DNA of 61,026 nt. It comes from Candidatus Magasanikiibacteriota bacterium (GTDB lineage Bacteria; Patescibacteriota; Patescibacteriia; Magasanikbacterales; GWA2-37-8). Positions within the stretch are counted from its first letter, which is position 1. Each line of letters begins with the position of its first letter. The position numbers and the translations under genes were made by a program. The stretch is from contig JBAYGI010000002.1 in the NCBI GenBank assembly GCA_041666745.1, forward strand, positions 102,291 through 163,316, given 5' to 3'. This document shows, piece by piece, positions 25,225 to 61,026 of this stretch. Below the pieces are notes generated by a model. That model saw only the letters and a program-made list of their open reading frames with translations. It was not told the DNA's origin and made no database searches.

Positions 25225-25242
25225 TTATTAAAATAAAAAAAC

Positions 25243-25275
25243 AAAAAACATCCAGATTAAAAATGGATGTTTTTT
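25243..25275 (+). terminator. Rho-independent terminator of the giant gene
   Basis: AAAAAACATCCA-N9-TGGATGTTTTTT. Confidence 0.7.
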
Positions 25276-25413
25276 ATTATCCTCAATATTCAAATAAAAA
25301 TATTTAAAAACTAAGGTTTGCCCGCGGCTGTCAGGGGATGACAGCTTTGCAGATGCGGGCAAGAGAGGGGAACTGTTTGTCGGCGAGCAAGGTGGCCAAG
25401 TCAAGTGTCTGCA

Positions 25414-25938: not shown

Positions 25939-26021
25939 GGCCTGCCTCACCAACCCCGTGGTCCGGGATTCGCAATCACCGTGTATCTTTGGGTTGTGCG
26001 AAGTTGCACTACTTTGGATTA

Positions 26022-26091
26022 CGGTGGTATGTTTGTTTGTCTAGATTCCCGTTTTCACAGGAATGACCAGTCGCAAACAAACATTCCACCG
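26022..26091. repeat. Family C hairpin nested inside an 18-bp outer inverted repeat
   Basis: CGGTGGTATGTTTGTTTG ... GATTCCCGTTTTCACAGGAATGAC ... CAAACAAACATTCCACCG. Sits at the right edge of the GC-rich island. Confidence 0.8.
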
Positions 26092-26235
26092 CAATCTCGC
26101 TCACTTTTTCCTCTCTCTTGGTTGTTGGCTGTATTTAGTTCTCGTATTTAAACAAAAACCAAAACAACACTTTTCAAAGAACGAACCTGAGACGATACCA
26201 CATTCCAGTGGTTTTGTCAACTATGAGTCTCTCTC

Positions 26236-26311
26236 TTTTAGCTTGTTTTAGGTAAATATACCTATATACTGACATATTTTATACCTGTGGACAAGTGGGT
26301 GGTGGATAACT
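26236..26311 (+). repeat. Direct repeat copy 1 (60 bp identical plus a 16-bp diverged tail)
   Basis: TTTTAGCTTGTTTTAGGTAAATATACCTATATACTGACATATTTTATACCTGTGGACAAG is identical to 27852-27911. Both tails end in TGGATAACT. Confidence 0.95.
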
Positions 26312-26328
26312 CCCCAACCGTGCTGGTT

Positions 26329-26355
26329 AATTTGTGGATTGTACATCCACAAATT
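26329..26355. promoter_or_regulatory. Palindromic operator-like site AATTTGTGGAT-TGTAC-ATCCACAAATT abutting a TTGACA box
   Basis: Perfect 11-bp arms. TTGACA at 26356-26361 follows, with a 17-nt spacer to TTTAAT. Confidence 0.55.
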
Positions 26356-26424
26356 TTGACAAATTTATGGATATGTGTTTTAATATATTTAATTCAATAT
26401 TATTTATTTAACCTAATTTTACGT

Positions 26425-27558
26425 ATGATAAAAAGATTTTATAATGATTTAGACAAATGGATAAAACCAGGCAAAGCCCTAATTATTTATGGTCCACGCC
26501 GAGCCGGCAAAACTACGTTACTACGTAATTTTTTGGCTACTACCAAATATAAATATAAATTGGATTCAGGTGATAATATTTCAACACAACAAATATTAAG
26601 CTCGCGTGATTTTAAAACAATTTTAGGCTATGTGGAGGGTTATGAATTATTGGCAATAGATGAAGCGCAAAATATTCCTGATATTGGCTTTGGATTAAAA
26701 ATACTTACAGACGAACGACCGGATTTGCGCATTATTGCCACGGGGTCATCTTCTTTTGATTTATCCAGACAAGTGGGCGAGCCACTTACCGGTAGAAAGA
26801 ATACGGTTATTTTATATCCTTTTGCGCAAATGGAACTTTTGAATAAGTATAATCATTTTGAATTAAAACAAAACTTAGCGGATTTTCTAATTTTTGGATC
26901 TTATCCGGAAGTAGTTATGACGAAAAACAGAATTGATAAAATCACTCTTTTAGAAGAGTTGATGAATTCTTACTTATTGAAAGATATATTGTCTTTAGAA
27001 AAAGTAAAAGGATCAAAAGTGTTGCTCGATTTAGTCAAGTTGTTGGCTTTTCAAATCGGCAATGAAGTATCTCTAAACGAAATGGCAAGTCAGTTGAGTT
27101 TGGATGTAAAAACAGTTGCGCGTTATTTGGATTTATTAGAAAAAAGTTTTGTGATTATTTCTTTGGGTGGTTATGGTAGTAACTTACGAAAAGAGGTCAG
27201 TACTAAAAAGAAATATTATTTTTTGGATACTGGTATTCGCAACGTGGTGATTTCCCAATTTAACAGTTTAGAGGATCGCAATGATATTGGGTTTTTGTGG
27301 GAAAATTTCATAGCGGTTGAAAGATTGAAAAATAGATCTTATAATAATATTTATGGCGGTTATTATTTTTGGAGAACTTACGAACAGGAAGAAATTGATT
27401 TAGTGGAAGATCGTGATGGAAAATTGTTTGGCAGTGAATGCAAATGGTCAGCTCAGAAAGGCGAAAAAACTTTTGCCCCTAAAACTTGGACAAAAGAATA
27501 TCCAAAGGCCGGTTTCAAAGTGATTACCCCTGAAAATTATTTGGATTTTATTGCTTAA
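26425..27558 (+). CDS. AAA+ ATPase of the DUF4143 / COG1373 type
   Basis: Walker A IIYGPRRAGKTTLL, Walker B LLAIDEAQ and a C-terminal EIDLVE restriction-endonuclease-like tail. The listed ORF start 26287 was trimmed to ATG 26425. Confidence 0.8.
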   Translation: MIKRFYNDLDKWIKPGKALIIYGPRRAGKTTLLRNFLATTKYKYKLDSGDNISTQQILSSRDFKTILGYVEGYELLAIDEAQNIPDIGFGLKILTDERPDLRIIATGSSSFDLSRQVGEPLTGRKNTVILYPFAQMELLNKYNHFELKQNLADFLIFGSYPEVVMTKNRIDKITLLEELMNSYLLKDILSLEKVKGSKVLLDLVKLLAFQIGNEVSLNEMASQLSLDVKTVARYLDLLEKSFVIISLGGYGSNLRKEVSTKKKYYFLDTGIRNVVISQFNSLEDRNDIGFLWENFIAVERLKNRSYNNIYGGYYFWRTYEQEEIDLVEDRDGKLFGSECKWSAQKGEKTFAPKTWTKEYPKAGFKVITPENYLDFIA

Positions 27559-27566
27559 CAACTTAT

Positions 27567-27794
27567 CTTTTTGGTTCTGCCGTTCATGGTAAAACTACCA
27601 AATATAGTGATATTGATGTCGCTGTAGTCTCTCAAAAACAGGGAAATTTTTGGGAGGATCGTCAACGTTTGTCCGTAGCTGGTTTACAAGTAGACAATCG
27701 AATTGAATCGCATTTTTTTTCAAGAAAAGATTTTTCAGATTTAAATGATCCTTTAGTATACGAAATTCGTAAAACAGGGATTAGGATTGTATAA
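27567..27794 (+). pseudogene. 5'-truncated minimal nucleotidyltransferase (MNT-type) remnant
   Basis: LFGSAVHGKTTKYSDIDVAVVS...LVYEIRKTGIRIV then stop. The frame opens only at 27534 (just after an in-frame TGA) and has no start codon. Confidence 0.65.
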
Positions 27795-27808
27795 GTATTA
27801 TAACACCT

Positions 27809-27836
27809 AACTACGTCAAATTGACGTAGTTTTTTG
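27809..27836 (+). terminator. Rho-independent terminator
   Basis: AACTACGTCA-AAT-TGACGTAGTT followed by TTTTGTTT. Confidence 0.7.
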
Positions 27837-27851
27837 TTTGAGCTGTGTATT

Positions 27852-27927
27852 TTTTAGCTTGTTTTAGGTAAATATACCTATATACTGACATATTTTATAC
27901 CTGTGGACAAGGTTGTTGTGGATAACT
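27852..27927 (+). repeat. Direct repeat copy 2
   Basis: Identical 60 bp to 26236-26295. Contains TGTGGACAA and a perfect TGTGGATAA (the reverse of TTATCCACA) at 27917-27925. Confidence 0.95.
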
Positions 27928-27969
27928 ATTTTTCGACCAATATTACCATTTGTCCACTATTCTTAAATG

Positions 27970-27978
27970 TGGTATAAT
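27970..27978 (+). promoter_or_regulatory. Extended -10 promoter element TGgTATAAT for the T4SS-like operon
   Basis: Lies inside the listed ORF start (ATGTGGTATAAT). For that reason the CDS start was moved to ATG 28003. Confidence 0.55.
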
Positions 27979-28002
27979 ATCCGTGTAATATTATTCAAAA
28001 AC

Positions 28003-30831
28003 ATGTTCTCAACTTTCAGGCAGAGAACGATTGCTGTGTATCATTTTCTTAAAGCGCGCCGACCGCATTTGGGTGTTTTTGTTTTTGTGTCAATTTTGTT
28101 TTTGGCGGGTTATTTATCTGCTGGGATATATGCGTCCAATACTGGACATTTGAGCATTTTTAGTCCACAGACTGTATTGGCCGCTGATCCTCCAGCCACT
28201 ACCCCTGCTTCCACTCCAGCCGCCGCCGCTTCTCCAGAAGTAGGCATGTTGATGGGATGGATAATCGGACTACTTTTGGCCGGCGCCTCACTCATGTTGC
28301 GTTTGGCGATTTTTTGTTTAGCTTTTATTATTCAGATTGCCGGTTACAATGGTTACCTTAGTTCTACAGCGGTAAATGTCGGTTGGGTGATGGTGCGAGA
28401 TATTACCAATATGTTTTTTGTGGTGATTTTGTTATTGGTTGCGTTTGGTACTATTTTGGGATTGGAGCAATATGAATGGAAAAAAATGTTAGTGAAATTT
28501 TTCTTGGCCGCGGTGTTGGTGAATTTCAGCCGTATAATTTGTGGAGTGATTATCGACGTCGGTCAAGTGGTGATGATCACTTTCGTCAACGGTATCGCCG
28601 CGACTGCCGGTGGAAATTTGATCAACGCGTTTAGCATGGACAAGATTTTTTCTTTGTCTCAAAATTCTTCTTCCACCACAATCACCGATACCAAAGAATT
28701 GTTTATCGCAGCGGTGGCAGCGATAACTTTTTCAGCGATTATTTTGGCGATGATGCTAGTATTTGTATTTATGTTGACCGCACGTTTGATTGTACTTTGG
28801 ATTTTAATTGTTTTATCTCCATTTGCCTTTGTGCTCAGTGTGATTCCGCAAACTCAAAAATTTGCTTCACAATGGTGGAGTGAATTTGGCAACCATGTAG
28901 TGGTTGGTCCGGCGGTGGTATTTTTTATGTGGCTATCTTTTGCGGTGGTTGGCAGTGGACAGATCAATGCCGAAATTTCCGGTAGTAGCGCGACACCTGA
29001 AAATGCAAAAATCGGAGACAAAGATTCAGCCGGTATTGGCGATGTTATGGATTGGAATAAAATGTCCAATTTTGCGATTGCGATTGGTATTTTGTTGGTG
29101 GGCGCGAAAACAGCCCAGTCACTTGGTACGATAGGTGGTAGTGCGATGAGCAAAGCAACCGACTTCGGCAAGAAAGTGGCGATGGTGGCCTCTGGCGCGA
29201 GCGCGGCCATGTGGGCGGGTGGCAAAGCCAAACAGGGAGCTATTGCTTCTGCCAAATGGGGAGCGATGAATGTGCCGTTGATTGGTGGCCAATCTTGGCA
29301 GAGACGCGGGTTGGCGGCGAAAGATAAATTGTTGCAAGGGGCTGAATGGTATAACAAAAAAATAGGATCAAAAGTTGGTCTTGGATTGCAATTTGGACAT
29401 CATGAAAAAATGATGAAAGAACGACAGGCAGCGATTGAAGTACGCAAAGGTAATTTATCCAGTAGTGTCAAAGGTTACCAAGGGTGGGGAAAGGAAAAAA
29501 AGCCTGGCAGTGTGGAGGAATATCGCGCCTATGTGGATAATATAACAGGTATGCAAATGGTGACCAAAGAAGGTTCGGAAGCATTGCGCACCTCGCGCAA
29601 ATCGGCCGCTCAACGAGAAACTTTGGAACAAAAACCGGAATTGCGCGAGAAATATGCTTTGCGTACCACCGCGCAAAAAGTTGAAGCAGCTAAATTGGAA
29701 CAGGCCAAATCACAGATTGAGCTTGATGTTGTTCAGGGAGATTTGGTAAAAGGAATAGCAGGCGCTCCTGGTGGTGGAGAACGACTGGTTGAGTCTTTGT
29801 ATGGTAGAGATGCAACTCAAAAAGCGCTAATCGCTGAACGTGGTGGCAAAGTGGAAAAAATTACCCAAATGCGCACAAAAGAAAGTTCTGTTGTGGAAGA
29901 TCAAGCCGCCGAATTGGTATCGTTAGAAAATTCTATAAAAACACTGACCGCGGCCTTGGACGGGCTCGCACCTGACGGTAAGAATGCCTCCGCGACATAC
30001 AACTCATTGCCTAAAGATTTACAAGAGAAAGTATTAGGAGACAGAAAAACACTAGAGGGTGAAGAAAGGTTTAAAAAAGTCACAGGTAATGATCTGGCCG
30101 CGAGGGAGGCAATTATTGAGGTGGTTACCGATTCGTTGAATAAAACCAAAGAAAAATATGAACAAGAGAAATTGAAATTCGGTGACGTTCAAATTGGTGT
30201 TGGAGGAGATTTTGGTAAACAGCTTGCTTTGTTAGAAGCGATTCAAAAAGAAATTGCTAAAGAAAATAAAAAGAGCGGTACGGGTGATTGGGCAGGTATT
30301 CTTAAGAATTTTGAAGGTACTATAGAAGAAGTTGGGTTTGACAGCAAACTCGGGACCAAACAGTTTGATAGGGATTTCATAAATAGAAATCAGGGTCGCA
30401 ATTTAGAATCGGCGGCCTTGGCTTTGAAAAATATGCAAAGACAAAAAGAGGCATATGAAAAAAATCCACTTGCAAATGCGGCACCAAATTTAGCAATCGC
30501 CGCCAGTAAATCCAGTATCGAACTGATATCCAAACAAAAGCGTGAAATTTCCGGCAATATAAACATAAGTGAAGTTTCCGGTAGTCCTGCCAAGGCAAGC
30601 ACTTTGAAAGACATTGTAAGCAAAGCCGGATTAGCGCCTGGTGCTATTGATAGTGGTTTAGATGATAGAGCAATAGAAGAAGCATTGAGGAAAATCAAAG
30701 CTTCACAGACAGACATTGATCCCAAGTTAAATGACTTAGGAATAAACATGGAGGCAATTGAAAAAATGTTTAAAGAATTAAAGCGCGGTGGTGATCCGGC
30801 AGTACAACGTCTTGTTAAAAGCATGCTGTAA
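28003..30831 (+). CDS. Large polytopic membrane protein, VirB6/TrbL/ConG-like, with a long hydrophilic C-terminal region
   Basis: About eight hydrophobic helices in the first ~400 aa (e.g. VGWVMVRDITNMFFVVILLLVAFGTILG, LVNFSRIICGVIIDVGQ), then ~550 aa of charged, coiled-coil-like sequence. It is the first gene of the VirB4 operon. Confidence 0.45.
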   Translation: MFSTFRQRTIAVYHFLKARRPHLGVFVFVSILFLAGYLSAGIYASNTGHLSIFSPQTVLAADPPATTPASTPAAAASPEVGMLMGWIIGLLLAGASLMLRLAIFCLAFIIQIAGYNGYLSSTAVNVGWVMVRDITNMFFVVILLLVAFGTILGLEQYEWKKMLVKFFLAAVLVNFSRIICGVIIDVGQVVMITFVNGIAATAGGNLINAFSMDKIFSLSQNSSSTTITDTKELFIAAVAAITFSAIILAMMLVFVFMLTARLIVLWILIVLSPFAFVLSVIPQTQKFASQWWSEFGNHVVVGPAVVFFMWLSFAVVGSGQINAEISGSSATPENAKIGDKDSAGIGDVMDWNKMSNFAIAIGILLVGAKTAQSLGTIGGSAMSKATDFGKKVAMVASGASAAMWAGGKAKQGAIASAKWGAMNVPLIGGQSWQRRGLAAKDKLLQGAEWYNKKIGSKVGLGLQFGHHEKMMKERQAAIEVRKGNLSSSVKGYQGWGKEKKPGSVEEYRAYVDNITGMQMVTKEGSEALRTSRKSAAQRETLEQKPELREKYALRTTAQKVEAAKLEQAKSQIELDVVQGDLVKGIAGAPGGGERLVESLYGRDATQKALIAERGGKVEKITQMRTKESSVVEDQAAELVSLENSIKTLTAALDGLAPDGKNASATYNSLPKDLQEKVLGDRKTLEGEERFKKVTGNDLAAREAIIEVVTDSLNKTKEKYEQEKLKFGDVQIGVGGDFGKQLALLEAIQKEIAKENKKSGTGDWAGILKNFEGTIEEVGFDSKLGTKQFDRDFINRNQGRNLESAALALKNMQRQKEAYEKNPLANAAPNLAIAASKSSIELISKQKREISGNINISEVSGSPAKASTLKDIVSKAGLAPGAIDSGLDDRAIEEALRKIKASQTDIDPKLNDLGINMEAIEKMFKELKRGGDPAVQRLVKSML

Positions 30832-30849
30832 TAATTAATTTTGTTTAAT

Positions 30850-31707
30850 ATGAGCAAAACAGAAGCAATGGGTAAGGGTGGGGAGGAAAGAAAATTTGTG
30901 CCTAGTTTGGCACAGGCTGCTGAAGCGGCTATTAGAGCAAAGTGGCCGGAAATAGTCACCGCGAGAGCCGCGGTAGCATCAGACGAGAGACAAATTTTTG
31001 GTGCTCTAGCCGATGATACTTTTAAACAGAAAATAAAACAAAAAGCCCTGTTTGATCGCTATGGAATTACTGTTCCGACAGATGCCGGAGTCGCCGCGGT
31101 CGAAAAAATAAAAGCTAAATATTTTAGTAAGATGGACAAAGATCAGTTGGTGGATTCGTTTAAAAGTATGACCAGTCGTATTTCTGTAAAGCGTCGCGAA
31201 GATCCGAATTATGCCAGTAGCACCGAACATCAAGAGGATAAGTATTGGTTGTTTGCATTATTGCAGAGAATGCAAGACACGAGGTACCTAGATGATCCTC
31301 AAGGTACGGCCGAAGAAGAAATAATGTCAGATATCGCTTCTGCTATGGGTGATTCCAGTGAGTATTCAAGTTATTTGGAATCTTATCGCAATAGTAAACG
31401 TGATCAACCTACTGTGGCCAATTCCAATTCCGAGCAAGGTTTTGATCTGAACGATATCTTGGGAAACGGTTCAAAAAAAGAAGCTCTCAAATCCGCTCTA
31501 ACCAAGATTAGTCTGACCGCCGATTTGTTGAGTTCGACAATAAGTCCAAATGAAATCGAAAGTTTGCTGTTGCAAGTAGACAGAGGATTGACCAATTATG
31601 ATTTGAATCCGATTGGTATCAGTGCCAATGATCTAAAGCTATTTATTAGAAATTTACCGTCAGCCGGTTCCAGAACAATAAATGATTTAAAAACCATTAT
31701 TTCTTAA
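30850..31707 (+). CDS. Hypothetical soluble protein (T4SS-like operon)
   Basis: Long ORF in the same strand, 18 nt after the previous stop. No TM helix or recognisable motif. Confidence 0.6.
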   Translation: MSKTEAMGKGGEERKFVPSLAQAAEAAIRAKWPEIVTARAAVASDERQIFGALADDTFKQKIKQKALFDRYGITVPTDAGVAAVEKIKAKYFSKMDKDQLVDSFKSMTSRISVKRREDPNYASSTEHQEDKYWLFALLQRMQDTRYLDDPQGTAEEEIMSDIASAMGDSSEYSSYLESYRNSKRDQPTVANSNSEQGFDLNDILGNGSKKEALKSALTKISLTADLLSSTISPNEIESLLLQVDRGLTNYDLNPIGISANDLKLFIRNLPSAGSRTINDLKTIIS

Positions 31708-31717
31708 TTGATATTTT

Positions 31718-33643
31718 ATGAGTGATGCACGTACAGGAGATACAGTAAGAGGAGGAATCGATCTCACACCTAGAGCGGCAGGTGATCATGTTACCAGTCT
31801 TATTTTAGAAAATAAGCCGGAGAATTTACCGGAACACATTAAAAGTAGATTGGCTTTAGATTTGGATAAAAATAAAACAGCCGATTATAGTCGTATGAAT
31901 TTGACTGAAGTGTTTTCAGTGTTTGGTTGTGATACCGCGCAAACTATCAATCATTGGCGTGTGGCCAAAATATTAGATGGTGTAAATTTTGCCTCTCGAG
32001 AATTAAAAATTTGTGATGGTATTGGTTATGGCGAGGTAATCGAAAAAGTTTACAAGCGTATAGAAGAGGGAAAAGTAGATGAAAAATTTATTACGATAAA
32101 AGTTCTTAGTCCTGATTCACCAAATGAAGAGGTGGAAACAAATGCCAGTTTGGCGGATATGGCATATCTCATCGATGTGGTTTCGGCCAATCGAAATTTG
32201 GGAACTTACAAAACTGATTTACGCCGAGTTGTTTTTAATTATTTTACCGGAAAAAGTTTGGAGGTAGAAGTCGGTGGCTTAGAGGGTCAAGAAAAACAGA
32301 AAGTAGATTTGTTGGATAAGAAAAACAATCCGCGCGATGATTTTGCTGATTTGGATATAAAATCTTATTTGGCATTTATCAAAAAAACGGACACCCAAGT
32401 TGGCTTGCAAATGTTGCAGGCTTGGGTTTATACCTCAGCTCAACATCGTGAAATGGGTGGTCAGGCAGAAGTGGTTCGGCAAACAGATGGCACATTAATT
32501 TTTATTCCGCTCAGTGGACGTATGGCCTCGGAGCGTACTTTGACCGAATTACAAAAAAGTGGAACAGGTGGAATGGATGGTCAGCCACAAGAGGTGGGTG
32601 AGATGGATGAAAATACCGGCGTAACTGTACGTTTTAGAATAGCTGATTTGGAACAAAGAAAAAGAGGTGGAAATATTCGTAATGTTAGTAAATCACAGCG
32701 TTTGGCCAAAGCCATGTGCGGTTTGACTTCCAAAGAGAACGGTAATGACAATATTCAGGCAGAAATGATTGGTAAAGAAAAAAAGAAAGTTGTTTATCTT
32801 TGTGGACAAAATTTGGGTGGGAAAGTTATTGATGGTATAGGAAATCATTACAACAAAACAATGAAAGCGGTGCGTGGTTTTGGGCTAAGTAAAGATGAGG
32901 CCGCTGATATTGCTTTTACTGATGTGTTTGCCCCTTGTATTGTCAACAATGAAAACGATTGGCTGGATGCGTTGGGGGTAAGTTTTAGTATGGGTAAAAC
33001 GGGTAGTACGTCATTGATTAATAATAAAGAAAATTTCGGAGAACATGTTTTGAGAATCAGATGTCGTAATTGGGAAAAATCAAACGAAGGTTACCCGATT
33101 GAATGGATGACCTTTACCGGTATGACCGGTGAAAAAGGATTGCGCGCTTATGTGGCTTGGCGTGCCGGACGTGGAGATATTGATCAAGCCGGTGCGGTGC
33201 GTTTTGCTGATGCTGAATTGATTGAAGACAATGCAAAGGGTGAAGCTAAATATGAAGAGTATGTAAAAAGCACTATCAACGATGTGGAAGGCAGGAAAAT
33301 TAGAGAATTATTGGAATATGTTTTGGGTGATGGGGGAGATAAATTGGTTGATCGTTTTGTCGCCAATGGTGGTGAAACCGCAGAGTTTGAAAATGTAATC
33401 AAGAGAGGTAATAAAGTTGTCAAAAAAGAGGTCTTGGCTTTTGATGATTATTTAGCGCCACGTTTTACTGAAAAACGTGAAGCGGCTGATCCAAGGGTAC
33501 GCGAATTGCTTATGGAAATTTATGATGGTGTGGATATTGATTGGACAGATACCAGAGACGTAGATCCTGAAGCAGTAATTGGCGGTTTGTTGGTAATGTT
33601 GCGAAAATTACCAAAGAAAGAAAGAGAAAAAATACAAAAGTAA
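31718..33643 (+). CDS. Hypothetical 641-aa soluble protein (T4SS-like operon)
   Basis: Long ORF after a 10-nt gap. No TM helix, signal peptide or recognisable motif. Confidence 0.6.
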   Translation: MSDARTGDTVRGGIDLTPRAAGDHVTSLILENKPENLPEHIKSRLALDLDKNKTADYSRMNLTEVFSVFGCDTAQTINHWRVAKILDGVNFASRELKICDGIGYGEVIEKVYKRIEEGKVDEKFITIKVLSPDSPNEEVETNASLADMAYLIDVVSANRNLGTYKTDLRRVVFNYFTGKSLEVEVGGLEGQEKQKVDLLDKKNNPRDDFADLDIKSYLAFIKKTDTQVGLQMLQAWVYTSAQHREMGGQAEVVRQTDGTLIFIPLSGRMASERTLTELQKSGTGGMDGQPQEVGEMDENTGVTVRFRIADLEQRKRGGNIRNVSKSQRLAKAMCGLTSKENGNDNIQAEMIGKEKKKVVYLCGQNLGGKVIDGIGNHYNKTMKAVRGFGLSKDEAADIAFTDVFAPCIVNNENDWLDALGVSFSMGKTGSTSLINNKENFGEHVLRIRCRNWEKSNEGYPIEWMTFTGMTGEKGLRAYVAWRAGRGDIDQAGAVRFADAELIEDNAKGEAKYEEYVKSTINDVEGRKIRELLEYVLGDGGDKLVDRFVANGGETAEFENVIKRGNKVVKKEVLAFDDYLAPRFTEKREAADPRVRELLMEIYDGVDIDWTDTRDVDPEAVIGGLLVMLRKLPKKEREKIQK

Positions 33644-33669
33644 AATTTTTAAATTTGCCTTTAAAAATT

Positions 33670-34788
33670 ATGGATAATCCATTTGAAATAAAATTAGCGG
33701 AAATTTGCGCCAAAGCGGTCGGTGATGAAACCAGTAAAAAGGCGGCGCTGGCCAGGTGTGCTAATTTTGGTTTGTCCAATCGAGAAGAGTTTTTACTGAA
33801 TTCTATTTTTGGACCAACACCGGATAATGTTCTGATTCTTTTGGATTTGTATGATACTTATCTGCCATATGTGCGAGGGCAAAAAGACAATGGTCGTTTT
33901 ATTGCCGATTGGGACAGCGCCAATAAATTAATTTTGGATGCGATTAATTTGGATACGGTTGAAATGTTTGGAATGTTTCTGCGTTCAATCTTTGTCTGGA
34001 ATGGAGAAAAAAAATATGAATCCGCCGTGCGCGAAGTGCTTCGAAAATTCGAAGATTATACTGCCGGCACTCTCGAATTTGATGAAATATCTGTATTTTG
34101 GTCGGAGGTTTATTACAAATTAATTCTTTTGATAGTTGCTGAAAATTTGAGTTTTCTGACCGAAGAAATGCAGAAGTTTTTTATCAATTCAAAAATGCTT
34201 TTTGAAGCGATTGCTTCTGGTGTTGATTTGGATCAAAAAATCAATCAATCAATCAATTATTTTGATTACTTGGATCTTCGTCGTGAATTAGCTTCTACCT
34301 TCGCCGTTTTTCTTTATGTCAACGAACAAAACATCGGCTTTAATCCCGCCACCGGCGAACCGGTTAAACTGGCTTTTTGGATTGATAAATTCAGAGTTTA
34401 TAGTAATAAAAAATTTGATGGTTTGAGTTTGATAAATTTTATTCAAGACGAGAAAACTTGGGGTGAATTCAACGATGGTTTCAGTCGAATGATAATCAAT
34501 AGCGTTTTGATGATATACGGTCATCTGGTAAGCGGATATTATGTATATCCACCGGCTAGTGAAGAGGTGGTGCGAAGCGCGCCGGTGAAAAAGATTGAAC
34601 CGGAAACGCCGACATACGGCGATATCAGAAAACTAGTGGAAGAAAAAACATCTCAATTGACCGACGATGATAAACCAACAGAAATTATTAATTTGTTAAA
34701 TAATTTTTCTGTACAGTATAATGATCCGACAATATTGGATTTATATTATTTTGACGAACCAAGTGGTGAGTTTAAATGGAGGGAATAA
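33670..34788 (+). CDS. Hypothetical soluble protein (T4SS-like operon)
   Basis: Long ORF. ATG 33670 is preferred over the listed TTG 33655. Confidence 0.6.
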   Translation: MDNPFEIKLAEICAKAVGDETSKKAALARCANFGLSNREEFLLNSIFGPTPDNVLILLDLYDTYLPYVRGQKDNGRFIADWDSANKLILDAINLDTVEMFGMFLRSIFVWNGEKKYESAVREVLRKFEDYTAGTLEFDEISVFWSEVYYKLILLIVAENLSFLTEEMQKFFINSKMLFEAIASGVDLDQKINQSINYFDYLDLRRELASTFAVFLYVNEQNIGFNPATGEPVKLAFWIDKFRVYSNKKFDGLSLINFIQDEKTWGEFNDGFSRMIINSVLMIYGHLVSGYYVYPPASEEVVRSAPVKKIEPETPTYGDIRKLVEEKTSQLTDDDKPTEIINLLNNFSVQYNDPTILDLYYFDEPSGEFKWRE

Positions 34789-35849
34789 ATATGGTAGACA
34801 CACAACCGACAATTTTAGTAAAAAAAGCCGACGGCACGACCGAGCGGATTACTTTGGCTGAATTAAAAGCACGCCAGACCAAACCGGTTGCTGTGGTAGC
34901 TACTATTGTTCCTGAAAAAATAAAAATTGAGGAACCAAAAATTGAGTTGTCAAAAATTGAACAACCAAAAATTGAAAAACCACATGGTCTGGTGATTGGT
35001 CCAATTGAAAAAAATTTACCGGAATTAAATGTATTGGCACAAAACAAAATAGTTCAAGCCCCATTAAAATCCGAAGATTTAAAACCACTCCTTCATGAAG
35101 TCGCGCCAGATAGCCCGCATACTGATAGCAATATTGCCACCGCCCGTGTTGATCAAGTTTCCAAAATAATTCTCGGTTTATCGTTTAAAGTACCACCACA
35201 ATTTGAAAATCGTTTGCGTAGCGGTGTGCAGTTGCGTTTGAAAGATATTCGCAGTGAAGCGGACACTCGTGATTTGTGCCTACGATCCATCAAAGACGGT
35301 GGTTTGGGTCTGACGCAATCGCAGGCGGATGAATTGGTGTCCAAAACACATCCTACCGCATCACCTCTAGTCAAAAAAGATCAGATATCACATGCGCCGA
35401 TTTTGCCACCAATGCCGGTAATAGAAATTATGAAAAAAAGTGACAAGGAAGCGGCGGTAGAAAAATTTCTCAATCCAATTCGTTCCAACCCGCCACAATC
35501 TTTGAAGCCTTTGATGCATGACGTGAAAGCCAAGCCGGCATCGATGAGCCCACTTGATGAAATTCAGTATTTTTCTTTGATTGATCTGCGTCGTTTGTCT
35601 TCTCAACCATCAGAAGCGGTGAGTCGTTTGAAACAAAAATTTGTGAATTTAAAAGATGAATCATTTTTGTTGTTTATGGATTCATGGAATGCTTGGCGCA
35701 ATAGTCCGCTTTACCAAAGTTATACGGAAGTAGTGGATTCGGCTCTGTCGCAAAAATTAAGTTTAAATACAGTTTTGGATTCCAAAGAAAAAATTTCACT
35801 TCCAGAGATTGAAGCATTGGTCAAAATGGAAAAAGAATTAGATATTTAA
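34776..35849 (+). CDS. Hypothetical protein with a KIEEPKIE-type short repeat (T4SS-like operon)
   Basis: Long ORF overlapping the upstream gene by 13 nt. Contains EKIKIEEPKIELSKIEQPKIEKP. Confidence 0.55.
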   Translation: MEGINMVDTQPTILVKKADGTTERITLAELKARQTKPVAVVATIVPEKIKIEEPKIELSKIEQPKIEKPHGLVIGPIEKNLPELNVLAQNKIVQAPLKSEDLKPLLHEVAPDSPHTDSNIATARVDQVSKIILGLSFKVPPQFENRLRSGVQLRLKDIRSEADTRDLCLRSIKDGGLGLTQSQADELVSKTHPTASPLVKKDQISHAPILPPMPVIEIMKKSDKEAAVEKFLNPIRSNPPQSLKPLMHDVKAKPASMSPLDEIQYFSLIDLRRLSSQPSEAVSRLKQKFVNLKDESFLLFMDSWNAWRNSPLYQSYTEVVDSALSQKLSLNTVLDSKEKISLPEIEALVKMEKELDI

Positions 35850-35852
35850 AGT

Positions 35853-36281
35853 ATGGAACAGTTTGTCGTGCCACAATTTATCGACGTTGAAGATAAAATT
35901 TTCGGACCGGTAACCGCGCGTCAGTTTGTTATTTTATTGGTGGCAGGTTTGGTTTTATTTGTCGCGTATAAAATAGCCGATCTCACTTTGTTTATTTTTA
36001 TGTTAGCTACTATTGGAGGGGGTTCTTTGATTTTGGCTTTTGTAAAAATTAACGGACAAGCTTTTCATTATTTTCTTTTAAATTTATTTCAGACATTACG
36101 TCGCCCCAGTCGTCGTATTTGGTATAAGAGTGACAGCAAAGAAGAGCTTGAGGAATTGCGTAAAGGTGAAAAAATTGAGATAATGGAGAAGCCTTCTGAG
36201 ATACCGAGATTATCTTACAATCGTATTCGTGATTTATCGTTGGCGGTGAATACCGGTGGTTATTATAAGCCGGAAGAATAA
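35853..36281 (+). CDS. PrgI-family (VirB3-like) small membrane protein
   Basis: MEQFVVPQFIDVEDKIFGPVTARQFVILLVAG followed by two TM helices. It sits directly upstream of VirB4, as in Gram-positive T4SS loci. Confidence 0.7.
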   Translation: MEQFVVPQFIDVEDKIFGPVTARQFVILLVAGLVLFVAYKIADLTLFIFMLATIGGGSLILAFVKINGQAFHYFLLNLFQTLRRPSRRIWYKSDSKEELEELRKGEKIEIMEKPSEIPRLSYNRIRDLSLAVNTGGYYKPEE

Positions 36282-36285
36282 AATA

Positions 36286-36309
36286 GATTCCCGCTTTCGC
36301 GGGAATGAC
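36286..36309. repeat. Family C hairpin element
   Basis: GATTCCCGCTTTCGCGGGAATGAC, located in the 37-nt gap between the PrgI-like gene and the next gene. Confidence 0.85.
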
Positions 36310-36318
36310 ATATACATT

Positions 36319-36999
36319 ATGAAGAACAAAAAAGCGGCGGCCAAAAAATCTACACTTCCTGCGGCTCAGCGTTTTATAAACATATCTGAAATAAAACAGG
36401 ATTCTTTGGTTTTGAAAGATGGAACTTTGCGCGCGATTTTAATGGTGTCGAGTATTAATTTTGCTTTAAAAAATGAGGACGAACAAAATGCTACTATTTC
36501 CGCGTATGTTAGTTTTTTAAATTCTTTGGACCATCCTTTGCAAGTGGTGATTCAATCGCGTGAATTGTATATCCAGCCTTATTTGCAAGATTTAATAAAG
36601 CGTGAACATGAACAGACAAACGAGTTATTGCGCGCTCAAATTGCGGATTATCGTTCATTCGTGACGGAGCTGGTGGAAATGGGGGAGATTATGAGTAAAA
36701 ATTTTTATGTAGTGGTGCCATATGATCCATTGTCCAACAAGCAAAAAAGTTTTTGGTCACGTTTGAGCGAAGTTTTCAATCCGGTAATCACGGTAAAATT
36801 AAAAGCGGAACGTTTCGCCAAACGTAAATATGATTTGGATCAGCGGGTGCGTCAGGTGGAATCCGGTCTGCGAAGTATCGGGTTGGAAGTTGTGCGTTTG
36901 GATACACAATCATTGGTGGAGGTATTATATTCGACTTATAATCCGGATATCGCTCTCACCGAGCGTTTGACACCGCTTAACGAAATGAAATTAGAATAA
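36319..36999 (+). CDS. VirB4 N-terminal-domain-like protein (separate ORF)
   Basis: ISEIKQDSLVLKDGTLRAILMVSSINFALKNEDEQ resembles the N-terminus of Gram-positive VirB4/TrsE/PrgJ proteins. Start trimmed to ATG 36319 because the upstream part of the listed ORF is the repeat. Confidence 0.5.
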   Translation: MKNKKAAAKKSTLPAAQRFINISEIKQDSLVLKDGTLRAILMVSSINFALKNEDEQNATISAYVSFLNSLDHPLQVVIQSRELYIQPYLQDLIKREHEQTNELLRAQIADYRSFVTELVEMGEIMSKNFYVVVPYDPLSNKQKSFWSRLSEVFNPVITVKLKAERFAKRKYDLDQRVRQVESGLRSIGLEVVRLDTQSLVEVLYSTYNPDIALTERLTPLNEMKLE

Positions 37000-37000
37000 T

Positions 37001-38869
37001 ATGGCTTTTAAACCACAATTTGGACAAAATAATGCAACTGATATTTCTTTGCTTGGAAAAGAAACCAGCCAGTTGGAAAAGGAAGCGGCGATTTCGGCTA
37101 TTACACTGGAAGAAGAGCGGGTTTATCGCGAGGGTGTAGTGTCGTTAAAAGATATTATTGCTCCGGCTTCTTTAAATGTTGAATCAAGTTTTATTCAACT
37201 GGGTACCACTTTTGCGCGCACGATTTTTATCATGAATTATCCGCGTTATATTTCTATTGGATGGAGTTCGCCGGTTATAAACATGTCTATCAACATGGAT
37301 ATCTCGATGTTTTTTTATCCGGTAAAGGCGGCGATTATTTTGAAACAATTAAAAAATAAAGTGGGCGCGCTCGAAGCTCAGATCAATGCCGATTCTGAAA
37401 AAGGCTCGCCACGTGATCCGATTCGTGAAACCGCTTTGCGCGATGTAGAGGAGTTGCGTGACAATCTTACTCAGGGTACGGAGCATTTTTTCCAATTTTC
37501 TTTTTATGTTACGATTTATACAAAAAATAAAGAAAAACTGGATCAACTTTCCGAGGATATCGAAAGTATTTTTGGCAGTAAATTAATTTTATCTCGCAAA
37601 GTTTTGTATCAAGCGGAACAAGGTTTTAACTCTACGATGCCTTTGTGCAATGATGAATTGATGATTGCCTACAACATGAATTCATCACCGATTGCCGCGT
37701 CGTTTCCTTTTATTTCGGCCGAGCTTACTTCCGACAATGGAATTTTGTATGGCGTTAATCGTCATAACAATAGTTTGATTTTGTTTGATCGTTTCTCCAT
37801 GCAAAATGCCAACATGGTAGTGTTTGCGACTTCCGGTGCCGGTAAAAGTTATGCTATCAAATTGGAAATTTTGCGATCCTTGATGATGGGTGTGGATATT
37901 ATCGTGATTGATCCGGAAATGGAATACAAACATTTGTCTGATGCGGTTGGGGGAACTTACATCAACATTTCTTTGTCTTCAGAAAGTAAAGTTAATCCGT
38001 TTGATCTACCCCGTCCAATGGGACAGGAAGTAGCTGTAGATGATATTATTCGCAGTGCGGTTATTACCGTGAAAGGTTTGTTGCGTATTATGCTTGGGGG
38101 AATTACTACGGAGCAGGATTCGATTATTGATCGAGCTTTGATTGAAACTTATGCCAAAAAAGATATTACTCCGGATGCCGATTTGCTTACCGTTCAGCCC
38201 CCGATTATGCAAGATTTGCAAGAAGTTTTGGAAGGTATGGAAGGTTCCAATGATTTGGTATTAAAATTACAAAAATATACCGAAGGTACGTTTAGTGGAT
38301 TATTCAATTCGCCGACCAATGTAGAAATGAAAAATCAACTGGTGGTATATAGTGTGCGTGATTTGGAAGATGAATTGCGTCCACTCGCGATTTACGCCAT
38401 TATCAATTATATTTGGAACGTAGTACGCAGTGAACGCAAAAAACGTATTTTGATTATTGATGAGGCGTGGTGGTTGATGCAACACGAAGATAGTGCGCGT
38501 TTTATTTTTGCTCTGATCAAACGCTGTCGTAAATATTTCTTGGGCGTCACCACTATTACTCAGGATGTAAATGATTTTTTACATTCTCAATACGGACAGG
38601 CGATAGTGAACAACTCAGCCTTGCAGTTGTTATTGCGTCAATCGCCGGCGGCGGTAGAAAATATACAAAAAGTTTTCATGTTGACTGACAGTGAAAAATA
38701 TTTATTGTTGGAAAGTGGTCCGGGTGAAGGGATATTTTTTGCCGGATTAAAACACGCGGCCATCAAAGTAGTGGCCTCATATACCGAAGATCAGTTGGTC
38801 ACTACCAACCCACAACAATTGCTCGACATTGAGCGAGCCAAAGAAGAATTCGAAAAACAAACAAAATAA
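37001..38869 (+). CDS. virB4: VirB4-family type IV secretion ATPase
   Basis: IAPASLNVESSFIQLGTTFARTIFIMNYPRYISIGW, Walker A FATSGAGKSY, Walker B RILIIDEAWWLM. Confidence 0.85.
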   Translation: MAFKPQFGQNNATDISLLGKETSQLEKEAAISAITLEEERVYREGVVSLKDIIAPASLNVESSFIQLGTTFARTIFIMNYPRYISIGWSSPVINMSINMDISMFFYPVKAAIILKQLKNKVGALEAQINADSEKGSPRDPIRETALRDVEELRDNLTQGTEHFFQFSFYVTIYTKNKEKLDQLSEDIESIFGSKLILSRKVLYQAEQGFNSTMPLCNDELMIAYNMNSSPIAASFPFISAELTSDNGILYGVNRHNNSLILFDRFSMQNANMVVFATSGAGKSYAIKLEILRSLMMGVDIIVIDPEMEYKHLSDAVGGTYINISLSSESKVNPFDLPRPMGQEVAVDDIIRSAVITVKGLLRIMLGGITTEQDSIIDRALIETYAKKDITPDADLLTVQPPIMQDLQEVLEGMEGSNDLVLKLQKYTEGTFSGLFNSPTNVEMKNQLVVYSVRDLEDELRPLAIYAIINYIWNVVRSERKKRILIIDEAWWLMQHEDSARFIFALIKRCRKYFLGVTTITQDVNDFLHSQYGQAIVNNSALQLLLRQSPAAVENIQKVFMLTDSEKYLLLESGPGEGIFFAGLKHAAIKVVASYTEDQLVTTNPQQLLDIERAKEEFEKQTK

Positions 38870-38884
38870 TTTTAATATTTTTTT

Positions 38885-39490
38885 ATGCTTTCATTGCGCG
38901 CTAGAATTTTTATCATTATCAGCTTAATAGTTTTGGTAATTTTAGGTATCAGTCTTTTTTTGTTGGTGCGAGCAAAAAAGCAAGCGGCGACCACAGCCGG
39001 TCAGCCGGTCGCAGGTGAAAATTTACCGGTAGCCAATGGTTTGCCGGCCGTCGCGCCCACTCCGGTGACCGATGTTTCCGGCAACATAAAAGTAAATCCG
39101 GTTTCTTCAGTGGAAACTCAAAAAAATGCTGCTGAACAAATTGCCAAGATATTTTTTGAACGTTACAATTCTTATTCATCCGAGAGTCAATATCAAAATG
39201 TACGTGATGTGCAGGCATTGGTGTCCAAATCATATTGGACTCAATTAAGCGCAAAATTACCTTCAGTGAAAACTGTTCAAAATACAGTCGCTCCATTTTC
39301 TTCCACCATTACCAAAGCTTATAGTTCAAAATTATCTTCATGGAGTGAACAATCGGCCATAGTGGATTTGCAAGTAAAAATTTTGGAAGAAAGAAATGGT
39401 ATAGTAGGCAATCGTGATCAGCAAGCCACAGTATATTTGGTGAAAGATGGACAAAATTGGTTGGTGGATAAATTTGAATGGGGGAAATAG
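38885..39490 (+). CDS. Bitopic membrane protein with a C-terminal globular domain (possible VirB8-like)
   Basis: One N-terminal TM helix, a Pro/Ala linker and a ~130-aa domain ending LVKDGQNWLVDKFEW. The call rests only on position and topology. Confidence 0.3.
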   Translation: MLSLRARIFIIISLIVLVILGISLFLLVRAKKQAATTAGQPVAGENLPVANGLPAVAPTPVTDVSGNIKVNPVSSVETQKNAAEQIAKIFFERYNSYSSESQYQNVRDVQALVSKSYWTQLSAKLPSVKTVQNTVAPFSSTITKAYSSKLSSWSEQSAIVDLQVKILEERNGIVGNRDQQATVYLVKDGQNWLVDKFEWGK

Positions 39491-39493
39491 TCT

Positions 39494-40219
39494 ATGAATT
39501 TATGGAGGGGATTGGTTCAAGTATCCAAGGATTATTTATTTCCGATATTTTGTTTGGAATGTAAAGTTGAAGGGCAATGGTGGTGTGAAAATTGTTTAAA
39601 AAAATATACTGTGATGGGAGTATATTATTGTCCGATTTGTCATGTTTCCAATTCCAATGGTCAGCCGTGTGGTCGTTGCAAAGCCGTTTCACTATTAAAT
39701 AGTGTCACGGCTTTTTTAGACTACAATGATGAAGCGGTCATCGGCCAATTAATTCGTCAATTCAAATATAATTTTGCTTTTGATATTGTATCCGTGTGGG
39801 AAAAAATGATTGATTTATTTTTGTTGGATATTATAAAGAAAATGGATATTTCAGCGGAATGTTTTACTATTATTCCGGTGCCACTTCATATCAAAAGAGA
39901 ACGCGAACGTGGTTTTAATCAAGCCAATTTGGTGGCACAATTAATTTTTAAAAAATTGGACACTGAGCGTTTGGTGGGTTTTGATAATAAAAGTTTTCAA
40001 AGAAAAAAATACACCCAACAGCAAGCCAAATTGAATCGCGTTGATCGACTAAACAACCTCAAAGAAGCGTTTGTTTGGTCTGGAAAAGAATCCGCCCCCA
40101 AAAATATTTTGTTGGTAGATGATGTATACACCAGTGGTACTACGATGCAAGAGTGTGCCACAGTATTGAAAAAGTTTGGCACGCAAAAAGTGTATGGTTT
40201 TACTTTGGCGCGTGATTGA
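39494..40219 (+). CDS. comFC: ComF-family phosphoribosyltransferase (ComFC)
   Basis: N-terminal Cys pairs (CLEC...CENC...CPIC...CGRC), ERGFNQA and LLVDDVYTSGTTMQE. Begins 3 nt after the previous stop. Confidence 0.85.
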   Translation: MNLWRGLVQVSKDYLFPIFCLECKVEGQWWCENCLKKYTVMGVYYCPICHVSNSNGQPCGRCKAVSLLNSVTAFLDYNDEAVIGQLIRQFKYNFAFDIVSVWEKMIDLFLLDIIKKMDISAECFTIIPVPLHIKRERERGFNQANLVAQLIFKKLDTERLVGFDNKSFQRKKYTQQQAKLNRVDRLNNLKEAFVWSGKESAPKNILLVDDVYTSGTTMQECATVLKKFGTQKVYGFTLARD

Positions 40220-41777
40220 TGTTTTGCCAGACATTGGCTTGTTTGTCGGAATATACTTTTTTCCAATTACTGGAAGTGTTTAAATCTTTTTCCAATTGAG
40301 TTTGTTCCAAACAAGAAGCTATTATTGCGGATTTTCCAAACATCCAATTATTGACCGCATCCGGTTTGGCGATGGAAATAAAATTTGTTTGTGTCCAAAG
40401 GATGTAGTCAACTCCGTCGTTTTCGATTTCTTTTAATCCGTTAGGTTTGGTCAAGATTTCTCCATAATGTTCCAACATTGTTTTTTGTGTGTCATACATC
40501 CAAGTGGCGGTACCGCGACCATCAAAATAGATAAGAGCGTTTGGCACTGTCCAATTTAAATATCCTCCCCAGTTGAAAGCGTTAAAAATTTTGGTTGGCT
40601 GTTTGACATTTGTTTGCGACCAATTTACCGCCGAGTAAGGAAAAGAATTTTTTTCAGCTAAATATTTATCTTTCCAAACATCGCCGGTAAAATGAAGATT
40701 GTTCAAATAATAAAGTGATAGTAACACCAAAGTTGAAATTGAAAAAAAATAAAAACTTTTTTTAACAAAATTATCGCTTAAAAAATTAATTTTAGATAAT
40801 TCCGTTTGTATCAACTTGATCACAGCCGACAAAACCACGGCGGATAATAACCCCATAAAAATAGCTTGTCGTTTGTAAGCGACGGCGACATAGAAAAACG
40901 CCAAGAAAATCAGTAGGTGAGTGAAGCCGACTTTCTTTTTAACAAAACCATAAACCACAAATACCAGAGCGATAGTTTGGATGACTAAAATTTTCCAAAA
41001 AATCGGAAAAGTATAACTTGGCAACCATTCATTCGTATGCAGTTTATAATAATTTTGACCAAAATATTGAATGATCTCTTGCCAGATTTTTATACCATAA
41101 GGATTGACGGTGATCAAAAGCGCGGCGGTGATTTGAGTCAGAATTATTTTATATATTAAATTGTTAGGTAATTTTTCTTCATTTAGATATGGGAAATATT
41201 TTTTAGGGATAAATTTGACAATCAGCGCGCTCCCCAGATAAATATTTAAAATAATAAAACCCAAAATCCAACTACCATGTAAAGCCGACCACAACCAAAA
41301 CATTGGTGGTATGACATACAGCCACCGCTGATTTTTTTTAGCTTTTTCTATTAGAAAAAAAGTAAGCGCGGTAAACAACGAAGTGAACATCGCCAGACGC
41401 GTCACAAAAATATGAGTGATCGTCCATTGACACAATAAAGTGACGGCCAAAAAAGTCGAAGTGATTTTTTTTAAAAAAGTTTTGCCAATCAATAAAAATG
41501 CCAAAGTAATCGGTATGGCAGTCAGTAAATTTAACCACCAATATCCCAGTTTTGAATAAACCAACCAAAACAACCAGTCGCCACCCCACTCATGATTGGT
41601 CCAGGGTGAGCCGTATTTGGAATAGGTGTAGGTGTCGGTATAGGGGAAAGCGCCGGTATGGAGCTCTTGTCCAAAACGCAGGTGCCAACCTAGATCATTG
41701 TCGAAGCTATTGGAAACTATGGCTAACGGTAGCAAAAAACTGAGAAGTAAAAGTAAATAAAAGATAATTTTTCGCAT
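40200..41777 (-). CDS. Polytopic membrane protein with an extracytoplasmic C-terminal domain (possible GT-C glycosyltransferase)
   Basis: 525 aa with more than 10 hydrophobic helices followed by a ~170-aa soluble tail. Convergent with comFC and overlaps it by 20 nt. Confidence 0.3.
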   Translation of the reverse strand: MRKIIFYLLLLLSFLLPLAIVSNSFDNDLGWHLRFGQELHTGAFPYTDTYTYSKYGSPWTNHEWGGDWLFWLVYSKLGYWWLNLLTAIPITLAFLLIGKTFLKKITSTFLAVTLLCQWTITHIFVTRLAMFTSLFTALTFFLIEKAKKNQRWLYVIPPMFWLWSALHGSWILGFIILNIYLGSALIVKFIPKKYFPYLNEEKLPNNLIYKIILTQITAALLITVNPYGIKIWQEIIQYFGQNYYKLHTNEWLPSYTFPIFWKILVIQTIALVFVVYGFVKKKVGFTHLLIFLAFFYVAVAYKRQAIFMGLLSAVVLSAVIKLIQTELSKINFLSDNFVKKSFYFFSISTLVLLSLYYLNNLHFTGDVWKDKYLAEKNSFPYSAVNWSQTNVKQPTKIFNAFNWGGYLNWTVPNALIYFDGRGTATWMYDTQKTMLEHYGEILTKPNGLKEIENDGVDYILWTQTNFISIAKPDAVNNWMFGKSAIIASCLEQTQLEKDLNTSSNWKKVYSDKQANVWQNINHAPK

Positions 41778-54178: not shown

Positions 54179-54247
54179 ACACAATTATAATGGACGAATT
54201 TGCGAATTTTCTCCAACGTGGTATTATATAGACAATCATTTTTTTGT

Positions 54248-54556: not shown

Positions 54557-54571
54557 ATAACAAACACTTGT

Positions 54572-60812: not shown

Positions 60813-60836
60813 AGATTCCCGCATTTGCGAGAATGA
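60813..60836. repeat. Family C hairpin element
   Basis: GATTCCCGCATTTGCGAGAATGAC. Confidence 0.75.
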
Positions 60837-61026
60837 CAACGAGTTGATACTGGAAAGAGAAAAGAGTAAGTCAAATTGGCTTCCTCTTTTTTCTTTCAAC
60901 AGTGAAAGAAAATGAACCTTGACAATACAAACGTGACAAAGACCATATTATATACAATTTAATTTGTATAAAATTAAACTGTCTATTCAACAACAAATAT
61001 ATTAAATAGTTCGGATTTATTTCCGA

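Follow-up and report, generated by a model that had tools for sequence, protein, structure and literature searches.

Which kind of machine is built by a type IV secretion system (T4SS) core whose last gene is comFC? The question is raised by a block of ten genes in a 61,026-nucleotide stretch of DNA, here called the window, from a Candidatus Magasanikiibacteriota bacterium (assembly GCA_041666745.1, contig JBAYGI010000002.1, positions 102,291 to 163,316). A first-pass annotation of the window had seen in the block a minimal T4SS-like core tied to a DNA-uptake factor and to four unknown proteins, and had proposed an undescribed apparatus. The core stands but the novelty does not: a relaxase-less, MPF_FATA-derived T4SS of Patescibacteria has already been published (PMC10633639, PMC12102498, PMC12857230). 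The window agrees with it feature by feature, the neighbouring KsgA gene included, so that the apparatus is a known one and the locus another member. We regard it as quite probable that the block is a chromosomal, conjugation-independent T4SS of this MPF_FATA-derived Patescibacteria type, in the version of the Magasanikbacteria (placed under class ABY1; PMC12102498 supplement), with comFC as its last gene.

The translocon and its parts

The map of open reading frames (ORFs) and their translations place all ten genes in one direction on the + strand, at the positions first reported. The spacing is also as described, with 1-37 nt between genes or slight overlaps, and with 3 nt between the last two:

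28003-30831, + strand: g1, VirB6/TrbL-like protein, 942 aa
30850-31707, + strand: g2, detached end of the VirB6 tail
31718-33643, + strand: g3, soluble protein, 641 aa
33670-34788, + strand: g4, soluble protein, 372 aa
34776/34791-35849, + strand: g5, soluble protein (34791 is the probable start)
35853-36281, + strand: g6, PrgI/VirB3-like protein
36319-36999, + strand: g7, TrsD-like protein
37001-38869, + strand: g8, VirB4 ATPase
38885-39490, + strand: g9, VirB8-like bitopic protein
39494-40219, + strand: g10, ComFC, final gene of the block

The motifs named earlier are found in the translations: Walker A GAGKS and Walker B ILIIDEAW, both within g8, together with LLVDDVYTSGTT and MEQFVVPQF. 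The block is a T4SS core (VirB6-like, VirB3/PrgI, VirB4 and VirB8-like), and the calls for these components are upheld by Pfam, NCBIfam and PDB matches and by the predicted fold of g9. The operon encodes a cytoplasmic-membrane translocon that comprises the VirB6-like protein (g1 and g2), a PrgI anchor, a two-part VirB4 motor and a VirB8-like subunit.

Relatives of the locus were sought with the g8 ATPase in one genome per GTDB species. This gave 473 relatives of the ATPase, of which the best 80, with 72-94% VirB4 identity, were examined. Apart from evidently mislabelled records, the 80 belong to metagenome-assembled genomes (MAGs) of Magasanikbacteria or other Patescibacteria. Many close MAG records are titled 'uncultured Gammaproteobacteria' (e.g., L001, L002, L008), and single ones 'Acutalibacteraceae' or 'Udaeobacter', which are probably wrong labels. 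The VirB6-like gene was delimited in 47 loci.

The ATPase g8 matches P-loop_TraG (5e-29) and AAA_10 in Pfam, and it scores 357.6 bits against the NCBIfam conju_CD1110 VirB4 model, whose cut-off is 325, with positions 174-728 covered. Among proteins in PDB, the VirB4 C-terminal domain 4ag5 is matched at 2.2e-48 and TrwK at 4.5e-7. The ATPase had been called VirB4, and this reading, as against FtsK, HerA or a type IV coupling protein (T4CP), is borne out by the CD1110 score and by the best PDB matches, which are VirB4 proteins. By homology, g8 is a VirB4 of the monoderm MPF_FATA type.

Upstream of it, g7 matches the NCBIfam TrsD family at 1.1e-8, under the curated cut-off, and aligns to positions 2-166 of the CD1110 VirB4 model and to positions 90-278 of the Mbov_0397 VirB4 model. 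It corresponds to the N-terminal ~170 residues of a VirB4 encoded in one piece. VirB4 had been described as one ATPase written as two ORFs. The two ORFs are real, but they form a natural pair of a TrsD-like and a VirB4 gene: the stop of g7 and the ATG of g8 are both kept in 76/76 related loci, across spacers of 1-134 nt that represent all three relative frames. A split by frameshift or pseudogene decay is ruled out by this constancy of the two-gene form. Judged from the alignments, g7 and g8 are a gene pair of the TrsD/TrsE type.

The small membrane protein g6 had been taken for PrgI/VirB3, rightly so: it scores 39.3 bits against Pfam PrgI (9.7e-10), above the cut-off of 27. Its hydrophobic hairpin spans residues 16-56, and the PrgI family was recovered in 72 loci.

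The VirB8-like nature of g9 had been a guess, and it holds, although neither Pfam nor a profile search of PDB with the orthologue alignment gave a match at the sequence level. The AlphaFold2 (AF2) model of g9 (predicted local distance difference test, pLDDT, 83.7) has an N-terminal transmembrane (TM) helix, a linker and an NTF2-like domain. We consider g9 VirB8-like because the top Foldseek matches of this fold in PDB are CagV (6iqt), TcpC (3ub1), PrgL (7aed) and TraH (5aiw), with E values from 9e-5 to 9e-4.

The ORF of g1 opens at 27967, and the ATG at 28003 is the start that aligns with the orthologues. Residues 21-320 hold six hydrophobic blocks, or about eight helices, and are followed by a long, charged, hydrophilic tail; only the first ~430-480 residues can be aligned to the closest orthologues. 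The g1 protein of the window has no match in Pfam or among PDB sequences, and a profile of the orthologue alignment found nothing significant in PDB either. Pfam TrbL/VirB6 matches do occur in 8/30 g1 orthologues, the best at 2.3e-4, and with the membrane topology these favour the VirB6-like call that had been made. On this footing g1 is an extended VirB6, with a tail fitting the class of that name (PMC12857230).

Four soluble proteins without recognizable motif had been counted after g1. Indeed none of g2-g5 has a Pfam or NCBIfam match, but g2 is a fragment of the VirB6 tail. Its residues 33-155 align with residues ~970-1126 of VirB6-like orthologues of 1199-1262 aa (E values of 5e-6, 2e-5 and 5e-12 for loci L001, L058 and L012, respectively). 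It shares the reading frame of g1, from which it is separated by a TAATAA double stop, and the two together make 1227 aa, about the size of these orthologues. Because of this homology, frame and length, g2 is best read as the detached distal tail of the VirB6-like protein and not as an independent unknown. A separate g2 match was seen in one related locus, L005.

The remaining three proteins are of unequal standing. The g3 family occurs in 10/47 loci examined and is thus confined to a sub-clade; g3 has no profile match in Pfam, NCBIfam or PDB. By contrast, a g4 family member stands at its position in nearly all loci, in some as two copies. The family evolves fast (mean column identity 19%) with a conserved C-terminus, a module of ~70 aa whose final residues are DLYYFDExxxKFxW. 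Scanning every orthologue gave no consistent Pfam family for g4, and no profile match in PDB was significant; a homologue search from the g4 alignment found 12 proteins. In joining a variable body to a conserved C-terminus, g4 is reminiscent of Xanthomonas-type T4SS effectors, which end in the conserved XVIPCD domain. The g4 module, however, is confined to genes at the g4 position, no immunity gene or toxin domain is seen, and there is no VirD4. A secretion signal common to a polymorphic effector family was dropped as an explanation for this reason, and the restriction of the module argues that g4 is a component of the system, not one of many effectors.

The g5 family was delimited in 66/80 loci, most of the others being contigs that end short of it, and by this count it is universally conserved. 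An exhaustive HMMER search gathered 1936 clusters at 50% identity (E<=1e-3), and the named members checked, which belong to Magasanikbacteria or Patescibacteria, all carried the label 'hypothetical'. Three small conserved modules are joined by Pro-rich linkers: an N-terminal ILVKKxDGT hairpin with a helix, a helical middle module and a helical C-terminal one. The AF2 model (pLDDT 77) is confident at residues 12-35, 125-191 and 259-354. It has no fold match in PDB or BFVD, and the sequences gave no match in Pfam (every orthologue scanned) or PDB. Neither g4 nor g5 has a TM segment or a signal peptide; that they might be related families was ruled out by hhalign comparison. They are two conserved, lineage-specific cytoplasmic families.

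The final gene had been called comFC, and Pfam, NCBIfam and motif agree. In Pfam, g10 matches DZR_2 and Pribosyltran (a double zinc ribbon and a phosphoribosyltransferase-like domain), and in NCBIfam comF at 3.8e-31, which is below the curated full-length cut-off, and GntX at 1.7e-28. It carries Cys pairs, and LLVDDVYTSGTT is its version of the VDDxxTxGxT-type motif of the ComF family. A phmmer search of PDB sequences with g10 returned nothing.

Known relatives, conservation and expression

The T4SS cluster of S. epibionticum (Southlakia) resembles Gram-positive conjugation systems and is without recognizable relaxase or coupling proteins (PMC10633639, Wang 2023). A survey of the phylum has revealed a monophyletic Patescibacteria VirB4 clade related to MPF_FATA (PMC12102498, Quinonero-Coronel 2025). 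In that survey TrsD adjoins VirB4 in 1664 Patescibacteria cases and PrgI is also adjacent, relaxases are rare near VirB4, VirB8 homologues come almost exclusively from ABY1, and the loci have KsgA and replication genes in their vicinity; comF, recG and radA are common in T4SS loci of ABY1, and functional coordination was suggested (PMC12102498). 'Extended VirB6' proteins have been described as well, in a review that sees the T4SS as perhaps a conduit for signals or for uptake from the host (PMC12857230).

The window shares with this clade the MPF_FATA-type VirB4, the separate TrsD-like gene upstream of it, PrgI/VirB3 and the VirB6-like protein. It also shares the core chromosomal location without relaxase or coupling protein nearby, the presence of KsgA in the neighbourhood (15739-16593), and, as reported for ABY1, comF in the locus and detectable VirB8 homologues. 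There are differences. The Saccharibacteria T4SS has a VirB2-like pilin array and peptidase/lysozyme genes, none of which are in this window, and the published accounts (PMC10633639, PMC12102498) do not cover the g4 and g5 families or the giant Cys-rich protein encoded upstream of the block. Also, VirB8-like proteins are apparently general in this order when judged by fold, whereas sequence profiles found only ~50 for the phylum as a whole.

Gram-positive conjugative T4SS are the next relatives. In pGO1, pSK41, pIP501 and CTn2 (CD1110) the order is likewise PrgI/TrsC, TrsD, VirB4 (TrsE) and a bitopic VirB8-like protein. The block has its VirB4 in two genes, as in TrsD/TrsE, and the NTF2-like fold of the VirB8-like subunit is that of TcpC, PrgL and TraH. 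TcpH and ConG are polytopic VirB6 proteins with a large hydrophilic tail, like g1. The block differs from those systems in lacking relaxase, T4CP, VirB1-type hydrolase, oriT context and mobile-element backbone, and in being a chromosomal locus conserved by vertical descent.

The absence of conjugation hallmarks had been noted at the outset, and a Pfam scan of the 61-kb window found no relaxase, T4CP, VirB11 or integrase. The scan covered window ORFs of >=100 aa outside the block, save a few that mostly overlap longer ORFs. Relaxase, coupling protein and integrase were not found among the recurrent neighbours in related loci either, and the intergenic gaps hold no small pilin-like ORF with two TM segments. 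The order VirB6-like, g4, g5, PrgI, TrsD, VirB4, VirB8-like, comFC is kept on one strand in every sufficiently long locus. Median spacers are 7.5 nt between g5 and PrgI, 16 nt between PrgI and TrsD and 18.5 nt between VirB4 and the VirB8-like gene. The flanks are housekeeping in nature (other window genes are NusA, YidC, GroES/EL, a release factor (RF), SMC, S16 and TrmD), and the base composition of the block is similar to that of the remaining window. Conserved order, housekeeping flanks and lack of mobility genes argue for a vertically inherited core locus and not an integrative and conjugative element (ICE). The view that this is no conjugative element is thereby sustained.

The tie to comFC had been offered as a defining feature of the block, and it proved both conserved and tight. 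None of the findings named beforehand as fatal to the first reading turned up. comFC is present in 73/73 loci whose contig reaches that far. Its distance from the VirB8-like gene has a median of 3.5 nt over 66 loci and is <=50 nt in 56/66. Directly past comFC synteny collapses. Each neighbour beyond it recurs in <=13 loci, among them SUF genes, HSP20, VanW, ClpP and a DHH protein, with one exception: a membrane protein found in the same place beside comFC in 23 related loci. In the window this is a polytopic protein of 525 aa without a Pfam match, whose gene (40200-41777, minus strand) converges on comFC with a 20-nt overlap of the ends.

The sites that may bear on expression of the operon are as follows:

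27809-27831, + strand: terminator-like hairpin closing the upstream unit, a 10-bp stem and then TTTTTG; consensus match only
27902-27925, - strand: two DnaA-box-like 9-mers, TTGTCCACA and the perfect TTATCCACA, upstream of the promoter
27950-27978, + strand: promoter-like site, TTGTCC, a 17-nt spacer and TGgTATAAT; score 10/12 with TG extension
39141-39169: promoter-like site inside g9, which could drive comFC separately
40226-40238: weak terminator-like hairpin past comFC

The extended -10 sequence TGgTATAAT, reported earlier at 27970-27978, is confirmed, with TTGTCC 17 nt upstream. It should be noted that the match alone proves little, since promoter-like matches are as common in shuffled sequence (53 in the region vs. 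47.8); conservation is the sole support. In seven relatives with diverged flanks TGnTATAAT is kept without change, equally far from the ATG, and 23/47 loci have it.

DnaA-box-like sites show a similar persistence. In 32/47 loci the VirB6-like start is preceded, at a distance of 58-153 nt, by a box with <=1 mismatch, as TTATCCACA or TTATCCCCA, where the background is 0.068 per 200 nt; the whole window has 44 boxes with <=1 mismatch where 21 are expected. Another such 9-mer is at 27950-27958. The conserved boxes suggest that the operon may be modulated by DnaA or by a factor with a similar site, which fits the finding that many Patescibacteria hold the T4SS close to dnaA/oriC (PMC12102498).

What the machine may carry

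As in Saccharibacteria, the machine would be non-conjugative and would act at the site of contact with a host bacterium, moving macromolecules across the envelope of the epibiont. By analogy, we rate export of proteins or effectors, or a two-way conduit, as its likeliest role, and hold this with middling confidence. Purely by conjecture, g4 and g5 could be cytoplasmic adaptors or assembly factors that replace the coupling protein. The upstream giant Cys-rich secreted protein would serve the machine as contact adhesin. Co-expression of comFC with the machine could reflect a selective advantage of expressing them together while in contact with the host, or plain inheritance of the operon, and a direct physical hand-off of DNA to ComFC would not be needed. 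Transcription would start at the conserved extended -10 promoter, and might be modulated via the DnaA-box-like sites.

Several points weigh against this picture. In contrast to the Saccharibacteria system, the window shows neither a VirB2-like pilin nor a VirB1-like hydrolase, so that the ABY1 machine may have another way of working. The gene for a coupling protein could also lie in a part of the genome beyond the 61-kb window. The VirB6 assignment is a weak one, drawn from low-scoring family matches. For g4 and g5, neither the Pfam and PDB searches nor the fold searches with g5 lend support to the suggested roles. Finally, the coupling of comFC is tighter and better conserved than chance synteny predicts, and since synteny decays right after it, a true functional connection with the handling of nucleic acids is conceivable.

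The last point leads to the rival that survives best. The T4SS could import DNA or other nucleic acid from the host or the environment, with ComFC, and after it DprA/RecA, receiving the single strands. It would then be a monoderm counterpart of Helicobacter ComB or archaeal Ced, and upstream of ComEC it might act in place of type IV pili or alongside them. We think this rather unlikely. A particular form of it, in which the ABY1 T4SS is a conduit drawing in host DNA or RNA, with strands delivered to co-translated ComFC, g4 and g5 as adaptors and expression tied to DnaA, seems to us improbable as well. Import would make sense of the invariable last place of comFC, of its short distance from the VirB8-like gene and of the break in synteny behind it. 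It would also suit the functional coordination suggested for comF, recG and radA in ABY1 loci (PMC12102498), the lack of relaxase and T4CP among the scanned ORFs, and the presence of comEC within the same window. The comEC gene had been described as split at 2-2527; two comEC-type ORFs are there, but a methyltransferase gene lies between them:

11-748: Competence-domain ORF (comEC), running off the start of the window
1048-1665: class I S-adenosylmethionine (SAM) methyltransferase gene, between the comEC parts
1673-2527: metallo-beta-lactamase (MBL)-domain ORF (comEC)

These ORFs, however, are 25 kb away and unlinked to the block, and the promoter-like site within g9 could drive comFC alone. 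In known systems ComFC is cytoplasmic, works with ComEC and is independent of T4SS. Genetic evidence points the same way: transposon sequencing (Tn-seq) of S. epibionticum found the T4SS essential for epibiotic growth and comEC, comF and dprA dispensable (PMC10633639). ComEC is needed there for transformation only (PMC10633639), and competence is ComEC-dependent (PMC10633639, PMC12857230). This argues against an obligatory partnership of T4SS and Com proteins, at least in that class.

Nor do the two import machines offer a close model. The ComB T4SS of H. pylori, like the block, lacks relaxase, VirD4 and VirB11, and its owner likewise possesses ComEC and ComFC. But it is diderm, requires VirB7/9/10 homologues, and is not encoded with comFC; its homology to the block is limited to the generic VirB3, VirB4, VirB6 and VirB8 parts, and Pfam revealed no VirB7/9/10-like proteins here. 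As to Ced, g8 has a partial P-loop similarity to CedB that could be taken in favour of import, but it scores 57 bits vs. a cut-off of 700 and covers the ATPase core only.

A second rival, that the T4SS exports or surface-anchors the adjacent giant protein, we consider very unlikely. The relevant features lie between 17290 and the start of the operon:

17290-25224, + strand: giant 2644-aa cysteine-rich secreted protein, upstream neighbour of the T4SS block
25414-25953, - strand: probable lipoprotein gene in the insertion described below, overlapping a doubtful + strand ORF
26287-27558: AAA_14/DUF4143 ATPase in the insertion
~27560-27793: truncated nucleotidyltransferase remnant in the insertion

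What speaks for export by the machine is that tblastn finds matches to the C-terminal third of the protein upstream of the VirB6-like gene in 25/47 loci. The protein has its own N-terminal hydrophobic signal or anchor, however, which makes such export unlikely; its 4.6% Cys is what one expects of a Sec-exported, disulfide-bonded extracellular protein. It has no C-terminal TM segment, and its sole Pfam match is a weak one to CBM_4_9. Moreover, the giant gene and the operon are separated by the terminator-like hairpin and by a low-GC insertion of 2.7 kb (25225-27966), which is lineage-specific and not common to the relatives. In Gram-positive T4SS, adhesins such as PrgB leave the cell by the Sec route and work as partners of the machine, not as its substrates. 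The giant protein is a candidate host-contact adhesin of this sort, as we infer. A small membrane protein with TSP3 calcium-binding repeats is encoded ahead of it (16635-17276), and a second giant protein, of 1613 aa, at 55063-59904.

That the block is a decayed, non-functional ICE remnant, as the homology of its parts to Gram-positive conjugation genes, the split VirB6 tail of this genome and a serine recombinase ~1.7 kb downstream in 4 related loci might suggest, is rejected as exceedingly improbable, given a VirB4 conserved at 72-94% identity over 80 species-level genomes and with 473 relatives, core genes that are all intact and syntenic, housekeeping flanks in which no integrase or att-like sequence was found, a base composition near that of the rest of the window, and a homologous system that is essential in Saccharibacteria (PMC10633639).

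Patescibacteria account for a considerable part of the diversity of bacteria, and theirs is the first T4SS shown to be essential for the growth of its owner. The locus does not represent a novel type of machine but defines the ABY1 version precisely, and with handles that can be tested: a VirB8-like subunit detected by fold within a conserved core, the orphan g4 and g5 families, the conserved giant secreted neighbour, a comFC gene coupled to the operon at the end of synteny, and a conserved DnaA-box-like promoter element. Of these, the comFC coupling is the best genomic clue as to whether some Patescibacteria T4SS handle nucleic acids.

Repeats and other genes of the window

The spacer between the PrgI and TrsD genes contains a dispersed palindromic repeat:

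36289-36309, + strand: TCCCGCTTTCGCGGGAATGAC, able to form an 8-bp hairpin

The window has four copies where none is expected, two of them exact (36289-36309 and 7154-7174) and two degenerate (26047-26067 and 60817-60837). The repeat is found upstream of the VirB6-like gene in loci L012 and L006 as well. An Rfam scan returned tRNA-Ser only. Farther along the window, defence or toxin-antitoxin-like genes are seen at 43059-43484, with a weak HEPN_AbiU2 match, and at 54200-54949, with a nucleotidyltransferase and HEPN pair (NTase_sub_bind/HepT-like).

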